Shown: piece after piece, positions 27,386 to 35,005 of the stretch | Layout of the letters: the number at the start of each line of letters is the position of its first letter | Position numbering within the stretch: the first letter of the stretch is position 1 | NCBI GenBank assembly: GCA_030693235.1 | Contig: JAUYBE010000004.1 | Location: 1-59,114 of the forward strand | From: a bacterium | GTDB taxonomy: Bacteria; Patescibacteriota; Minisyncoccia; UBA6257; UBA9933 | DNA length: 59,114 nucleotides | Direction: 5' to 3' | Notes under the pieces: model-generated | Seen by the model: only the letters and a program-made list of their open reading frames with translations | Database searches by the model: none | What the model was told of the DNA's origin: nothing | Made by a program: the position numbers and the translations under genes

Positions 27386-27433
27386 GTTTACGTATATTGT
27401 GCGAAAACACGTCGTCTTTAAACGAGTTATGTG
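27365..27433 (+). other. putative attI-like primary site
   Basis: Degenerate right-half att sequence CTTCAGATAAAATGC...TTGTGCGAAA, then GTTATGTG (27426), which is complementary to CACATAAC at the end of cassette 1. Confidence 0.5.
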
Positions 27434-27519
27434 AAATAATAAAAAATTCTTTTCGCCCTGCGGGTCGATTAAATCGGGGCAAATTTATTTTTTATTTTTA
27501 CATAGCTCACAACAAAACT

Positions 27520-28017
27520 ATGAAAGAAAAATACATTCCATCTTTGGAGGAAGTAAAAAAATCCGAGGAAATGATGTCGCAAGAGGAAAAGAAAATGAGC
27601 GAAGAAAGAGAAGCAACATTCGAAAAAGGTTATAAGGAAGGTGTCAAGAAGGCATACTCAGAGATTGCTTCAAGCATTACTTCCAAACTTGATAATATTA
27701 CAAATCGTGAGAAGCTTGATGAGTTGTATAAATTGCCGTCATTGGCAGGGAGTCAAGAAAGTGAAAAATTGGAGATTGAAGAAAAAGCTCGGGTATTAAA
27801 AGAAGAAATTAAGAAAATGAAAATCGAGGGAGGTATGTATGACGGAGACATAATTGAGATAACGCTTTCAACTGGCGGAGTTGTTAGGGGGATGTTTTTT
27901 GAGGTTGATATCAATTCTGGAGTTATCCGTCTAAATGAAAGAGAGGGTTCAGGTGATATGATACCCATCAGGTTAGTTGAAAAAGTTAGATCACTAGAGG
28001 ATAAAAATAAAAAATAA
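27520..28017 (+). CDS. cassette 1: hypothetical protein, possible C-terminal Sm/LSm-like domain
   Basis: Coiled N-terminus; 'GDIIEITLSTGGVVRGMFFEVD..G.IRL' resembles Sm1 motif. Confidence 0.6.
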   Translation: MKEKYIPSLEEVKKSEEMMSQEEKKMSEEREATFEKGYKEGVKKAYSEIASSITSKLDNITNREKLDELYKLPSLAGSQESEKLEIEEKARVLKEEIKKMKIEGGMYDGDIIEITLSTGGVVRGMFFEVDINSGVIRLNEREGSGDMIPIRLVEKVRSLEDKNKK

Positions 28018-28071
28018 ATTTGCCCCGATTTATTTTCGCTTAATCAGCGAAAAAGAATTTTTTATTACATC

Positions 28072-28268
28072 ACATAACAACGCATATCTGGCTACATCCC
28101 GCCCTTCATTTTATATAAATCAAGGAATGGCGGGACTCCGCCCAAATTTTCATCCCTTAGTTCGATGAAGATTTAGGCGGAGATAATTAAACAAAGCATT
28201 GTCTGAAATCAAAAAGTTTATCCTGCTAAGTCGTGATGAAAACTTCAGATGATGCGTAAACGTTGTGC
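28072..28268 (+). repeat. attC-like site 1 (197 bp)
   Basis: ACATAAC-AACGCATATCTG...CCCAAAT...AAAACTTCAGATGATGCGTAAAC-GTTGTGC. Confidence 0.85.
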
Positions 28269-28311
28269 GAAATCCGCATTTGCCCTAGTGCTAAAAATAA
28301 CATTCAACAAT

Positions 28312-28890
28312 ATGACAACGAAAAACTGTATAATAATTCATGGATGCCCCTCTGACGCAGAAAAAGCAATGGATACTAAAACAAGAACCTACGATAAGCA
28401 TTGGATTCCGTGGACTAAAAGAAATCTTATTGCAAAAAACATAGAAACGGAAACTCCTCTCATGCCCTCGCCTTGGCAACCTGATTATGAAAAATTTAAA
28501 GCTGAGTTCGAAAAATATGCTGTCGGCGAAAACACAATCTTGGTTGGACATAGTTGCGGTTGTGCATTTTTGGTTCGCTGGCTTGGTGAGACAAAGACCA
28601 AAATTTTTAAACTTTTTTTAGTCGCACCGTGGAAAATTCCGCAGGAAAAAAGAAATGGCGCTGATGTGGATTTTTACACTTATCTCATTGATCCGACAAT
28701 AAAAGATAGGGTCGCTAAAATCGTAATGTTTACCGCCGATGACGAAGAGGGTGACGGCAAAAAAAGTTTAAAAATTTTTCATGATGTGCTTGGCGGCGAA
28801 ATTATTGAGTTGCCAGGACGAGGGCATTATTGTTTGGGTGATATGAAAACCGAGGAGTTTCCTGAATTATTAGAAAAGATTTTGCAATAA
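28312..28890 (+). CDS. cassette 2: RBBP9/YdeN-family alpha/beta hydrolase
   Basis: IIIHG, W.PW, LVGHSCG nucleophile elbow, LVAP, DD, GH. Confidence 0.9.
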   Translation: MTTKNCIIIHGCPSDAEKAMDTKTRTYDKHWIPWTKRNLIAKNIETETPLMPSPWQPDYEKFKAEFEKYAVGENTILVGHSCGCAFLVRWLGETKTKIFKLFLVAPWKIPQEKRNGADVDFYTYLIDPTIKDRVAKIVMFTADDEEGDGKKSLKIFHDVLGGEIIELPGRGHYCLGDMKTEEFPELLEKILQ

Positions 28891-28935
28891 GATTTCGGGG
28901 CATCCTTAAATCACGGACGGGCAAATGCGGACATC

Positions 28936-29063
28936 GCATAACACGGCATATCTGGCTCGGAAATTTCACACTTTATAATAAATTAAGGAAAGTGAAATTT
29001 CCTCTCCCAAATTTTTGTTCCGTTTCACTACACAAAAACTTCAGATATCGCGAAACGTTAGGC
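28936..29063 (+). repeat. attC-like site 2 (128 bp)
   Basis: GCATAAC-ACGGCATATCTG...CCCAAAT...AAAACTTCAGATATCGCGAAAC-GTTAGGC. Confidence 0.85.
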
Positions 29064-29201
29064 GACATATTTTTGAAAAATTTGTTAATTGAAATGTTTT
29101 TGGTGGGCTTTAAGAAATAAGGAATTTGATTTTTTTACTATATTTAGTATAATAAGGGGTAATAGAATGATTTATAAATTTTAATTTTTAAAATAACCAT
29201 T

Positions 29202-32667: not shown

Positions 32668-32741
32668 GCCATAATAAAAAGCCTTTTTTATTTTTTTATA
32701 TAATTTTGGCAATTTATTTTACAAATAACTACGAAAAAAAT

Positions 32742-33095
32742 ATGGAAAAATATGAATCTGGAAAAATTAAAGATGAACGATTAAATACTTTCGGAATGGC
32801 GCCGAAGGAATGGCAGGATTTTTTTGTAGCTTTTAAAAAGATAAGAAGTGAGGTTCTTGGTAAAATATTTAGTCTTGATTCGCAAAAGAAAAAAGTATAT
32901 TTGGAAAAAATAAACGAAAAACAAAAAGAAGCATTCTCTTCAGTTGATGAACCTTCTAAGTATTTAATTTACCACCAATCCATAGGTGGTTCAACGGGGC
33001 CAGTATATTCTCCAAAATTAGACTTTGAAGGTGATTATTCGCTTTTAAAATTTTATCAAGAAATTTTGAGAGAGTTAGATGATAACAAAAAATAA
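32742..33095 (+). CDS. cassette 7: hypothetical protein
   Basis: ATG at 32742 inside the cassette shell; no family recognised. Confidence 0.65.
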   Translation: MEKYESGKIKDERLNTFGMAPKEWQDFFVAFKKIRSEVLGKIFSLDSQKKKVYLEKINEKQKEAFSSVDEPSKYLIYHQSIGGSTGPVYSPKLDFEGDYSLLKFYQEILRELDDNKK

Positions 33096-33155
33096 CGGAA
33101 TAAAAATAAATTGCCAAAATTATTTTACATTAAGGAAGAGACTTTTTATGACGGC

Positions 33156-33352
33156 GTATAACAACGCATATCTGGCTACAGGAAAATCACTCAAATGTAT
33201 ATTATGGAATGTGATTTTCCCTCCGCCCAAATTTTCATCCCTTAGGTTGATGAGGATTTAGGCGGAGATAATTAAATAAGGCATTGTCTGAAATCAAAAG
33301 ATTATCCTGCTAAGTCGGGATGAAAACTTCAGATGATGCGTAAACGTTAGCT
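33156..33352 (+). repeat. attC-like site 7 (197 bp, close relative of site 1)
   Basis: GTATAAC-AACGCATATCTGGCTACA...CCCAAATTTTCATCCCTTAG...AAAACTTCAGATGATGCGTAAAC-GTTAGCT. Confidence 0.87.
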
Positions 33353-33459
33353 GAAATAATAAAAAATATTTTTTCGCCCTGTCGGTCGATTAAATCGGGG
33401 CAAATTTATTTTTTATTTTTACGTAGCTCAAATTTAATTAAAAACTAATCAACAAAATT

Positions 33460-33972
33460 ATGAAAGAATCAAAACAATTTGAAGGCACTACACCGCCTCA
33501 AGAGCGTAAAACTAATGAGCCAAAAAATTTTGGCGAGTTTCTTCCAAGGGTCGCAAATTTAACAGGCAGACCAATAGAAGAACTTAAGAAGAGTTTTGGA
33601 GAAAGTTGGTACAATGAAGAAATAAATACAGAACTACTTGAAAAAATTGAAAATGGCACGAAAGAATTTATAGAATGGGCTGCATTAGGAGAAATAGGAA
33701 AATATTCTCATGAGGAAGGTAAATCTAAATTAGCTGATTATGAAGCAGTTGCAATGGCCATGAGAGCCTATAAGACGGCAAAAATATTAGAAAAGCAGAA
33801 TCCAGTTTTATGTGCCGATCATTCAAAATTGGAGGAAAAATTTAATGAATTTGAAAAAGAAATGCAGAAGCTTGAAAAAGTAGATACTTCGGAAAATAAA
33901 ATTGCCCGACAAATTCTACTTCAAGGCAGGAATGCAATGGCTTATTTATTAGACAAAAATCTTGCAAAATAA
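33460..33972 (+). CDS. cassette 8a: hypothetical protein
   Basis: 170-aa helical ORF; no family recognised. Confidence 0.65.
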   Translation: MKESKQFEGTTPPQERKTNEPKNFGEFLPRVANLTGRPIEELKKSFGESWYNEEINTELLEKIENGTKEFIEWAALGEIGKYSHEEGKSKLADYEAVAMAMRAYKTAKILEKQNPVLCADHSKLEEKFNEFEKEMQKLEKVDTSENKIARQILLQGRNAMAYLLDKNLAK

Positions 33973-34029
33973 AAAATAAATTTACATCGATTAGTTTAAC
34001 TATTCGCCCAAATGCGATATAATTAAGGC

Positions 34030-34875
34030 ATGGAAAATAACAGAAATGAAAATACTCACATCGCCATTTTTAAAGGCAAAACCATTAGGAGAACGCTATT
34101 TCAAAAAGAATGGTGGTTTTCGGTTACTGATGTTTGCGGCGTGCTTACCGATAGTTCCGATTCAGGTGCGTATTGGAGAAAGCTAAAACAACGGCTCATT
34201 GAAGAAGGGAGTGAAGTCGTGACATTTTGTCACGGTTTGAAATTGCTTGCTCCGGACGGAAAAATGCGTGAAACTGATTGTGCCAATACTGAAGGCATGT
34301 TCCGCATTATCCAGTCAATTCCCTCGCCAAAAGTCGAACCGCTTAAACGTTGGTTAGCGAAAGTTGGTTATGAACGGATACAAGAAATTGAAAATCCTGA
34401 ATTGGCGACAAAACGGACAAAATTACTCTATAAGTTAAAAGGTTACCCTGAAGATTGGATTGAAAAGCGAATGCGAGGCATCGCCATTCGCGAAGAATTG
34501 ACCGATGAATGGAAAAAACGGGGCGCGGAAACCGACCGCGATTATGAAATCTTAACAGCGGAAATTTCGCAGGCAACTTTCGGCATAAAACCGAATGAAT
34601 ACAAAAAATTTAAAGGACTAAGGCGCGAGAATCTCCGCGACCACATGGATGACTTTGAATTGATTTTAACTATGCTCGGTGAAAGGACAACCACTGAAAT
34701 CCACCGTACCAAAGATTCAAAAGGAGTGCCTCGACTCAAAGACGACGCCCGTCTTGGCGGTGAAGTGGCTGGCACGGCCAGAAAACAAATTGAAAGACGA
34801 ATCGGCCGGCCAATAGTTTCAAAAAGTAATTTTTTGAAAAATAAAGAGATTAAAAGATTGAAAAATAAAAAATAA
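34030..34875 (+). CDS. cassette 8b: Bro-N domain DNA-binding protein
   Basis: 'IRR.....EWWFSV.DV..VLT', 'LKL.A.DGK.R.TD', 'IIQSIPSPK.EP.K.WLA.VGYER'. Confidence 0.88.
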   Translation: MENNRNENTHIAIFKGKTIRRTLFQKEWWFSVTDVCGVLTDSSDSGAYWRKLKQRLIEEGSEVVTFCHGLKLLAPDGKMRETDCANTEGMFRIIQSIPSPKVEPLKRWLAKVGYERIQEIENPELATKRTKLLYKLKGYPEDWIEKRMRGIAIREELTDEWKKRGAETDRDYEILTAEISQATFGIKPNEYKKFKGLRRENLRDHMDDFELILTMLGERTTTEIHRTKDSKGVPRLKDDARLGGEVAGTARKQIERRIGRPIVSKSNFLKNKEIKRLKNKK

Positions 34876-34929
34876 AATTGCCCCGATTCACTTTCGCTTA
34901 ATCGGCGAAAAAGAATTTTTTATTACATC

Positions 34930-35005
34930 GCCCAACACGGCATATCTGGCTCCGCTCCGCTACACCCAAATGCTTCGCGCTTCAGATGATGCGTGAACGT
35001 TATAC
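34930..35005 (+). repeat. attC-like site 8 (76 bp, minimal)
   Basis: GCCCAAC-ACGGCATATCTG...CCCAAAT...CTTCAGATGATGCGTGAAC-GTTATAC. Confidence 0.85.

Follow-up and report, generated by a model that had tools for sequence, protein, structure and literature searches.

A conserved structured shell around unrelated genes in an integron-like cassette array of the Patescibacteria

Introduction

In chromosomal integrons, one family of recombination sites is attached to many unrelated genes, a known hallmark that is unexplained, and the process by which cassettes come into being is likewise unknown (PMC8352920). We describe here an integron-like locus (bases 26508–35060) within a 59,114-nucleotide (nt) stretch of DNA, referred to in its full length as the window, from a member of the Patescibacteria (contig JAUYBE010000004.1), which belong to the candidate phyla radiation (CPR). 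The element under study is the shell of two of its eight gene cassettes, namely a leader in front of the coding DNA and a trailer behind it. The locus shares several traits with the integrons, in particular with sedentary chromosomal ones such as that of Vibrio cholerae with its near-identical V. cholerae repeat (VCR) sites: a tyrosine recombinase gene is divergent from an array whose units point in one direction, mostly hold a single gene and each end in an imperfect palindrome with ...AAC and GTT... boxes, one site family is present on many unrelated genes, and candidate defence genes are found among the cargo (compare bioRxiv 10.1101/2024.07.02.601686).

The feature that is new here is a shared element on both sides of the gene. 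Unlike integron cassettes, those studied here have in common not the core of the recombination (att) site but 75-nt arms that flank the gene, extend the recombination hairpin below its R box, possess an architecture of their own with side hairpins and a stop codon, and combine freely with att cores, which range from 71 to 193 nt next to the same shell. The recombinase differs as well. According to PMC9668308, which cites Messier and Roy (2001), integron integrases are defined by an additional domain. This IntI-specific domain is missing from the recombinase of the locus; the system works like an integron but falls outside the definition that rests on the IntI domain.

The pdif sites of Acinetobacter plasmids are 28-bp double-stranded XerC/XerD sites. 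With the modules bounded by them, the locus has in common an Xer-type recombinase, an inverted-repeat bracket, and the use of the same bracket around different genes. In contrast, the boundaries found here are foldable sites of 71–193 nt with AAC/GTT boxes and not 28-bp XerC-spacer-XerD sites, and the bracket consists of 28–75 nt of cassette-specific complementary sequence. Our literature search found no description of the shell design, nor of PDC-S13, a candidate defence gene that one of the two cassettes carries.

Results

The Same Leader and Trailer Flank Unrelated Proteins in Cassettes 1 and 8

An earlier reading of the sequence, the original prediction, had proposed that cassettes 1 and 8 consist of one shell, start codon context included, into which unrelated open reading frames (ORFs) are swapped. 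As it had claimed, the leaders are near-identical: they agree in 91% of 69 nt without gaps (27441–27509 versus 33362–33430; repeat D8) and, with one indel, in ~90% of the span from GTT to AGCTCA. Both lead into CAACAAAA(C/T)TATGAAAGAA, a stretch that can also be written CAACAAAA(C/T)T-ATGAAAGAA, and leader 8 holds 20 extra nt ahead of it. The trailers (28003–28102 versus 34861–34960; repeat D5) match at 87% identity over 100 nt, with the stop codon of either cassette lying within AAAAAATAA. A 28-nt core, ATCGGGGCAAATTTATTTTTTATTTTTA, occurs in four copies in the window, as opposed to 0.00 copies expected from 100 shuffles. The att sites behind the two cassettes follow a different pattern, also in agreement with the original prediction: site 1 resembles site 7 (94% identity over 79 nt and 90% over 62 nt), and site 8 is, with ~71 nt, far shorter. 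Sites located after shell trailers vary in length from 71 to 193 nt, and att cores are thus shuffled independently of the shell.

The proteins enclosed by the two shells (cargo 1 and cargo 8a; Table 1) look unrelated by each of the comparisons that we made. BLASTP aligned them with E > 2 only, and hhalign assigned a probability of 1.2% to a relationship of their families, the profiles of which are small and shallow. Single-sequence AlphaFold2 models depict cargo 1 as a long helix followed by a C-terminal beta part (a poor model with a predicted local distance difference test [pLDDT] value of 52) and cargo 8a as a protein of eight helices (pLDDT 72); a fold search of the PDB with the 8a model returned nothing at E ≤ 0.001. 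On present evidence, cargo 1 and cargo 8a do not appear to be diverged paralogues, a relationship under which the shared flanks would reflect simple common descent. Nor do we claim a shared N-terminus for them: with a motif model built from the N-termini of 17 proteins of the type represented by cargo 1 (X-type proteins, see below), 8a ranked only 19th of 292 sequences (E = 5).

The Shell Is Widespread and Brackets Different Genes

We searched species-representative genomes and metagenome contigs with a 21-nt pattern, CGGGGCAAWTTTATTTTTTAT, so that the census is biased toward copies that retain it (loci from these scans carry L numbers, related proteins P numbers). Thirteen stretches of the genomes contained the pattern, and eight of these proved to be true shells; among the metagenome contigs, 22 of 25 stretches were true, five of them duplicating genome matches. 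The shell is hence present in ~25 further CPR loci, which bears out its predicted reuse for unrelated genes. All true matches lie in att-bounded contexts or beside a recombinase gene. Shell cassettes are positioned directly beside the recombinase in the window, L002 and L028, within arrays in the window, L003, L006, L016 and L029, and as a solitary cassette in L008. The recombinases of the window and of L002 are 64% identical; the L002 leader is 94% identical to that of cassette 1, and identical across the arms. Most records are labeled as Parcubacteria, Patescibacteria or Falkowbacteria. Three contigs (L002, L006, L008) that bear a CPR-type recombinase, att sites and shells were binned as Bdellovibrionales and Gammaproteobacteria; we suspect binning errors in these cases since the attI region of L002 is near-identical to that of the Parcubacteria contig L009.

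With nhmmer models of the leader and the trailer, we delimited 18 cassettes in which both ends are present and whose interiors measure 284 to 1826 nt. Empty (ORF-less) shells are absent among these 18 complete shells, the smallest interiors being those of L028 (284 nt) and L027 (295 nt). Locus L028 (1767–2520) presents a truncated recombinase gene (an 80-amino acid [aa] N-terminal remnant), an attI-like junction, and the near-empty shell itself, in which the 284 nt between the arms hold ORFs of 33 and 31 aa and a middle arm copy. In a third shell subtype (L019, L029a, L033), the inner arm and both hairpins are kept inside a further inverted-repeat layer of ~45 nt; the true AAC/GTT boxes lie farther out, and a decayed box, TTGAGGCGAAAAT, occupies the position of the shell-1 box (L029, 1040–1110 and 1860–1927). 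This subtype looks like a shell nested in the ends of another cassette.

Leaders that are 91–95% identical to that of cassette 1 from GTT to ATG precede at least six different N-termini, for instance MSIEKPYVP, MEKVPQFLAG (285 aa), MKKEYTPSPQE (173 aa), MSEKMPTGVP (271 aa), and MNFEKQREYY. All-against-all BLASTP revealed no similarity among these cargos or between them and cargo 1 or 8a, with a single exception, a match between the first 60 residues of the MSEKMPTGVP protein (L025) and the cargo of another shell (L020). More diverged shells (69–80% identity) carry genes of other types: a short-chain dehydrogenase (adh_short; L030, with both shell ends present), a class I methyltransferase (L010), a KilA-N protein (L036), and membrane proteins (L014, L024, L033).

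Leader and Trailer of One Cassette Are Complementary to Each Other

Within one cassette, the leader is the reverse complement of the trailer, as is evident from the inverted repeats I2 and I7 (Table 1) for cassette 1 and from I6 and I8 for cassette 8, and further leader/trailer pairs of this kind exist in the window (I1, I4, I12, I23). The complementarity begins exactly at the GTT/AAC crossover boxes, and a small separate hairpin interrupts it on each side between the outer and the inner arm. The stem of the leader hairpin varies in sequence among loci (CCC/GGG, CCCC/GGGG, GCCC/GGGC). Across the eight cassettes of the window, and with the R box excluded, the mean score of own leader/trailer pairs is 13.3, compared with 6.4 for non-own pairs. 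The own pair scores highest or near-highest in cassettes 1, 2, 5, 6, and 8 and equal-best in cassette 7; in cassettes 3 and 4, where insertions have displaced the repeats, it does not exceed the non-own pairs. R boxes show in total 12 mismatches in own leader/trailer pairs versus 17 in neighbouring att pairs, a difference that does not decide where the crossover lies. Moreover, GAAAT in the leader stands opposite ACATC in the trailer in all eight cassettes, whatever the remaining arm sequence, which creates an unpaired patch 8–12 nt outside the GTT/AAC boxes (27433–27437 with 28067–28071 in cassette 1). By analogy with the extrahelical bases of attC sites, this patch could serve as a strand or orientation mark for the recombinase.

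If the cassette is cut and joined at G|TT, trailer, att site and leader would become contiguous in the excised circle. We folded this junction in silico by linking trailer 1 and att site 1, through the G of GTT, to leader 1 from TT onward. The product is one continuous rod, made up of an outer stem of 28 bp, an inner stem of ~30 bp and two side hairpins that covary, and its folding energy is −88.4 kcal/mol as compared with −49.6 in the array context. The corresponding values for cassette 8 are −47.9 kcal/mol for the junction and −27.0 for the same site in the array. Pairing of a leader with its own trailer makes sense only in the circular permutation of the cassette and is, in this way, indirect evidence that cassettes may move as circles through recombination at G|TT of a folded single strand.

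A consensus fold derived from eight leader-plus-trailer pairs from seven sources (the window and six other loci) comprises four helices, with 94.3% of the cells paired. Fifteen base pairs are altered on both sides, compared with 7.1 ± 1.9 in shuffled alignments (0 of 500 reach 15) and with only two to five when the partners are slid against each other. All six pairs of the trailer hairpin (helix 4) show such both-side changes across loci, and in L030 the R box and the outer arm have changed together. The middle of the inner stem is invariant, in part because the search pattern lies there; the length of the inner arm varies on the cargo side.

Two mobile hairpin elements, each a trailer-att-leader unit, flanking a gene were considered as another source of the repeats and dropped, since no junction keeps a matching trailer and next leader (cassettes 1 and 8 of the window [WIN1, WIN8], L003, L008, L016, L028).

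The Shell Supplies the Stop Codon but Not the Start Context

In nearly all cases, the cargo gene stops at offset +1 or +8 of ATAAAAAATAAA, and the shell therefore supplies the stop codon together with the last one to three lysine codons of most cargo proteins. The start codon context, which the original prediction had likewise ascribed to the shell, has a different origin. The sequence CAACAAAACT-ATG (followed by MKE/MSE...) recurs at X genes that have no shell (L040, L039, L041) and is missing from shells that hold non-X genes (L030, L014, L024). Hence, it belongs to the X gene family and not to the shell. Non-X genes abut the arms directly: the stop codon in L030 is formed by the first 3 nt of the arm, and the ATG in L024 lies 9 nt past it.

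The cargo of shells closely related to that of cassette 1, and most cargo overall, is of the X type, that is, orphan proteins rich in Lys and Glu with N-terminal modules such as MKEKYIPSxEEVKKAEEMM or MSEKM..TPEE. X proteins share such modules over 0, ~36, ~43 or ~95 residues, after which their bodies are wholly different. Cargo 1 has relatives for its first 36 residues only (81% identity to P0002). Cargo 8a has a dozen relatives at 33–63% identity, and this family is modular too: P0008 joins another N-terminus to the C-terminal half of 8a, P0007 and P0009 correspond to the N-terminal half alone, and P0005 is 8a extended by 130 residues. The breakpoints within ORFs point to mosaic recombination instead of whole-ORF insertion. 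With regard to the proposed swapping of ORFs into a shell, it holds that unrelated coding sequences are bracketed; insertion of entire ORFs does not fit breakpoints that often fall inside them. The retention of a short N-terminal module with a replaced remainder and nested breakpoints is reminiscent of polymorphic families such as the Rhs/CdiA-type toxins, from which the X proteins differ in that they have no toxin domain, immunity gene or secretion context.

X genes with a similar short 5′ leader occur without a shell in tandem (L040), beside a 273-aa gene (L039), and near TraG/TrwB-like genes (L041). In L041 (243–563), a fusion joins a DUF4116 domain to the N-terminal module of cargo 1 (MKEKYIPS..EVKK..MMT..EKEMSEEREATFEAGK), on a contig of higher GC content with no shell and with weak TraG/TrwB-like and transposase helix-turn-helix matches nearby. 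This module thus appears to travel independently of the shell. In L040 (293–1660), an 8a-like gene with an extra C-terminal part of 130 aa and a cargo-1-like X gene (MFKEKYQPTEEELK...) are arranged in tandem without shells or att sites, and each is preceded by a leader of the AATTTAATT(T)AAAACTAAT type.

Blocks Bounded by the Arm Copies Are Present or Absent as Units

A degenerate third copy of the first 27 nt of the trailer (33966–33992; D14, I13) sits between ORFs 8a and 8b; cassette 8 therefore holds two genes. The second of these encodes a Bro-N (DinD-like) protein that matches PDC-S13 of PADLOC over its full length (E 1.9e-115, 383 bits, residues 7–276 on profile positions 3–274 of 286), so that a defence role may be considered as a candidate function. 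This protein has more than 8000 relatives (clusters), the top 120 of which are 77–94% identical, mostly from Patescibacteria and spread across named candidate phyla; in the nomenclature of the Joint Genome Institute (JGI), they are called 'DNA-damage-inducible protein D'. It ranks among the most conserved and abundant proteins of the Patescibacteria, and it is encoded both by cassettes of at least two att types and by an ordinary chromosomal gene. Strong constraint and frequent transfer are alternative explanations for this conservation.

The order X, direct copy of the trailer inner arm with hairpin, promoter, Bro-N, full trailer is conserved in the window, L003, L008, L013 and L042. Cassette 8 is hence an old two-gene design. 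We had considered that two cassettes fused recently and that the att site between them decayed, but dropped this idea in view of the conserved order. Bro-N also exists without a shell, namely among housekeeping genes (L043) and in an array with another att type (L048). It keeps its Lys-rich tail in both of these settings, which identifies the KNKK-stop of cassette 1 as a tail of the Bro-N type. P0002, the protein nearest to cargo 1 by its N-terminal module, resides in an X + Bro-N shell. Judged from these sequences, cassette 1 has the appearance of a derivative without Bro-N and not of a recent capture. The idea that cargo termini derive from the shell accordingly needs to be divided: the shell contributes the C-terminal lysines and the stop codon, the KNKK-stop tail is native to the Bro-N gene, and the N-terminal context comes from X.

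In L045–L047, the outer arm and hairpin of the leader are joined straight to the middle hairpin, the promoter and Bro-N. Removal in silico of the block [inner arm-X-inner arm] from L008 and L042 yields sequences collinear with these three loci; entire blocks are thus gained or lost precisely at the copies of the arm.

The Cassette Array and Its Recombinase

The recombinase matches Pfam Phage_integrase (E 7e-43), and its top NCBIfam family is the XerA-type NF040815 (222 bits; cut-off 220). The integron integrase model TIGR02249 aligned in two pieces, residues 5–176 on model positions 2–176 and then the C-terminus, and reached 202 bits, below its cut-off of 265. PRK15417 covers only residues 194–271 (model positions 251–328). 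The split and sub-cut-off match to TIGR02249 means that the IntI-specific insertion near patch III is missing in this 271-aa protein, as judged by comparison with both profiles.

Beside this divergent gene, eight co-directional units on the + strand extend from 27426 to 35001. Their cargo comprises, by Pfam, a serine hydrolase, a small membrane protein, an EamA transporter, a RibD_C/DHFR-like protein, a methyltransferase, and several orphans. The units are parted by eight att sites, imperfect palindromes of 71–193 nt that start with ...AAC (ATAAC, CTAAC or CCAAC, for example), end with GTT... (GTTATGT, GTTGTGC, GTTAGGC, GTTATAC, GTTAGCT), fold into hairpins and comply with RYYYAAC ... GTTRRRY-type bounds. 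Cassette 5 (31121–31624) encodes the RibD_C/DHFR-like protein (167 aa; Pfam RibD_C 1e-18, DHFR_1 8e-9), which is the sort of cargo known from classical integrons. In cassette 4, a GC-rich insert with TCCGCTCCGCTAC-type repeats (30895–30990) lies between the inverted-repeat arm and the AAC box, and one copy of this repeat forms the center of the short att site 8 (34951–34967; repeat D16).

The array ends in an orphan leader, and the region from 34999 to 35125 holds the best promoter-like site of the region (TTGGCA-18-TATAAT, 35045–35074) and, behind it, a GC hairpin with a T run just ahead of the convergent thrS gene. Possible explanations for the orphan leader are a last cassette that has been truncated, the original right half of attI, and a tiny transcript.

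Table 1. Positions of the recombinase, shell parts, cargo genes and att sites discussed in the text.
Feature	Position	Strand	Evidence and remarks
Tyrosine recombinase of the array, 271 aa	26508..27323	-	Xer/IntI-like, without IntI-specific insertion
Leader 1 outer arm; starts at crossover box GTTATGT, contains conserved GAAAT	27426..27453	+	I7 with 28051-28078, 28 nt, 93%; helix 1 of consensus fold
Leader 1 small side hairpin (CGCCCTGCGGGTCGAT)	27454..27469	+	Helix 2 of consensus fold
Leader 1 inner arm	27470..27500	+	I2 with 28002-28032, 31 nt, 100% complementary; 28-nt core
X-type 5′ untranslated stretch of cargo 1 (CATAGCTCACAACAAAACT)	27501..27519	+	Kept up to ATG in many shells; related stretches ahead of X genes outside shells
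Cargo 1, X-type orphan, 165 aa; N-terminal MKEKYIPSLEEVKK... module, KNKK-stop tail within shell	27520..28017	+	No Pfam or NCBIfam family
Trailer 1 inner arm, containing stop codon	28002..28032	+	I2
Trailer 1 side hairpin (TTTTCGCTTAATCAGCGAAAA), terminator-like	28033..28053	+	Helix 4; terminator scan
Trailer 1 outer arm, ending in ACATCACATAAC (R''-type box)	28051..28078	+	I7
att site 1, ~190 nt, branched, near-identical to att site 7	28076..28264	+	Repeats D6 94%, D10 90%
Leader of cassette 7, distant relative of shell design (outer ATAATAAAAAG..., inner TTGGCAATTTATTTT)	32661..32720	+	Inverted repeat I1 with 33103-33162, 60 nt, 80%; alignment
Trailer of cassette 7	33103..33162	+	Inverted repeat I1
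att site 7, same type as site 1	33160..33348	+	Repeats D6, D10
Leader 8: outer arm, side hairpin, inner arm	33346..33421	+	D8, I6, I8; nhmmer E 1.7e-20
8a 5′ untranslated stretch, 20 nt extra (AATTTAATTAAAAACTAAT)	33422..33459	+	Same motif ahead of X genes in L016, L028, L040
Cargo 8a, X-type protein, 170 aa, predicted all-helical	33460..33972	+	Relatives at 49-51% identity, themselves modular
Degenerate middle copy of trailer inner arm	33966..33992	+	D14 79%; I13/I14 89%; well preserved at same place in L003, L008, L013, L042
Promoter-like site for 8b (TTAACT-16-TATAAT)	33996..34023	+	Promoter scan; relatives read TTGCTATAAT a few bases ahead of ATG
Cargo 8b, Bro-N (DinD-like) protein, 281 aa, PADLOC candidate defence gene PDC-S13	34030..34875	+	Pfam Bro-N E 1e-11; phrog_15286
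Trailer 8: inner arm, side hairpin 34892-34910, outer arm ending in CCCAAC	34861..34936	+	D5, I5, I6, I8; nhmmer E 6e-18
att site 8, short, ~71 nt	34934..35001	+	Folding, site-length comparison
Orphan cassette-7-type leader past last att site, without cargo or trailer	34999..35060	+	I15 23 nt at 100%; I25

Discussion

The best explanation for these observations is that the shell represents the terminal inverted repeats of one widespread cassette family in an integron-like system of the CPR. We assign a probability of about 0.5 to the more specific reading in which a mobility chassis is conserved and recombination at its three repeated arms renews the interior. The rod of trailer, att site and leader would then make the shell a basal extension of the recombination hairpin, ~75 nt per arm, in which the outer stem, the two small side hairpins and the inner stem form a four-way junction, with the unpaired GAAAT/ACATC patch next to the crossover box. 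This rod and its patch would be the substrate that the minimal recombinase needs. The shell would be a mobility chassis first and an expression chassis, by virtue of its stop codon and terminator-like hairpin, second, and selection for mobility would keep it intact while the interior changes. As presumptive points of exchange, the inner-arm copies, one inverted (in the leader) and two direct (after X and after Bro-N), would allow turnover by homologous recombination or slippage, to which recombination among mosaic X genes or paralogues would add. Cassette 8 would represent the full form (X + Bro-N) and cassette 1 an X-only form that has retained the KNKK-stop of the Bro-N type.

Several points weigh against this mobility chassis. 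The best-conserved sequence is the inner arm by the cargo and not the crossover side, a distribution that is partly due to ascertainment through the search pattern, and other cassettes make do with unrelated arms of 24–35 nt. An extension of the stem alone therefore does not explain why the sequence is kept, and a sequence-specific role in protein binding, RNA processing or transcription may be the real constraint. The presence or absence of the X block can be read as loss or as gain, and recombination from arm to arm does not explain the origin of non-X cargo such as the dehydrogenase and the methyltransferase. The Logan contigs from three groundwater runs break at the repeats; the joints that we compared stem from the arrays of other organisms and are silent on circles and excision. 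Finally, the pLDDT 52 model and the shallow profiles leave room for a very remote homology of cargo 1 and 8a.

A related and more far-reaching proposal, which we regard as possible but rather doubtful, views the shell as a reusable template, that is, a long palindromic and originally ORF-less cassette in which the apex between the ~30-bp inner arms acts as a dedicated joint for the loading, exchange and loss of coding DNA, for example after breakage of the tip of the extruded palindrome or through a dedicated reaction. In line with it, all cargo is located at the apex, enclosed by arms of perfect complementarity (I2), genes of the non-X kind directly adjoin the inner arms on both sides (L030, L024), the inner arm varies in length at its cargo side, the block between arms is either wholly present or wholly absent, and some shells are nearly empty (L028, with its truncated recombinase nearby, and L027). 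However, none of the 18 complete shells is empty, those with at least 90% identity hold the X family only, the X 5′ leader also occurs outside of shells, breakpoints often fall inside ORFs, and no enzyme for loading is evident. De novo creation of cassettes by way of the shell, as envisaged in the original prediction, is to this extent no more than possible. If the template proposal were true, new cassettes would be made by filling a template and not by adding an att site to a gene, and this would be the first concrete mechanism of cassette genesis.

It is less likely that the shell functions mainly as RNA, with leader and trailer pairing in the array transcript, RNase III cutting this duplex or the duplex stabilising the mRNA, and the trailer hairpin terminating transcription. 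The model is suggested by an analogy, and by no more than that, with the rRNA processing stems cut by RNase III, in which sequences up- and downstream of one gene form a long duplex as well. A perfect 31-bp duplex (I2) closes the ORF, the trailer hairpins are terminator-like, sequence conservation peaks beside the cargo, and since both strands fold alike, covariation does not distinguish DNA from RNA. Unlike the pairing in rRNA stems, however, the complementarity starts exactly at the DNA recombination boxes, and the covariation of R boxes within cassettes is not required by any RNA function. Leader, trailer and att site are also without a match at gathering score to Rfam 15, for which tRNAs were the sole matches in the window and five related loci.

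We consider it quite improbable that cassettes 1 and 8 are duplicates that share their flanks by common descent, with proteins diverged beyond recognition. Both proteins do begin with MKE, the start of the 8a family (M-x-EKFEG-TPPQE) is loosely like the X N-terminal motif, and P0007 came 4th of 292 in the motif search. Against this stand the BLASTP and hhalign comparisons, the differing predicted fold classes and the low rank of 8a in the same search. In addition, leaders that are 94–95% identical precede proteins of 88 to 285 aa that have nothing in common, and non-coding flanks that are far better kept than the coding DNA are the reverse of what neutral divergence produces.

Least probable is a transposon-like element, either a miniature inverted-repeat transposable element (MITE) or an insertion sequence (IS), that lands in arrays with passenger genes between its terminal inverted repeats: repeats of 28–75 nt do surround passenger genes, the inner arms delimit a block that is found or missing in its entirety and some shells are nested in a further inverted-repeat layer (L029a), but the outer ends coincide with GTT/AAC crossover boxes, all other cassettes of the array have their own, unrelated end repeats, the cargo contains no transposase, the true pattern matches are confined to att-bounded or recombinase-adjacent positions, and the bases that flank the inner arms are mostly inverted and not direct, with no clear target duplication in a check that is hampered by the nearly palindromic nature of ATTTAAT/ATTAAAT.

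How integron cassettes originate and how their content changes is an old open question. As a rule, only the site downstream of a cassette gene can be recognised, so that the junctions carry little information. In the system described here, both junctions are marked by a conserved, structured arm of 75 nt, and natural variants display the events that take place at them: the same chassis with different genes, one- and two-gene forms, a form in which precisely the block between the inner arms is missing, near-empty shells, and nested shells. The turnover of cargo thereby becomes directly testable by comparative genomics and by a recombination assay. Furthermore, the complementarity of the cassette ends, with its unpaired patch, constitutes an added defining feature of an integron-like system of the CPR that lacks the domain thought to be essential for integrons.

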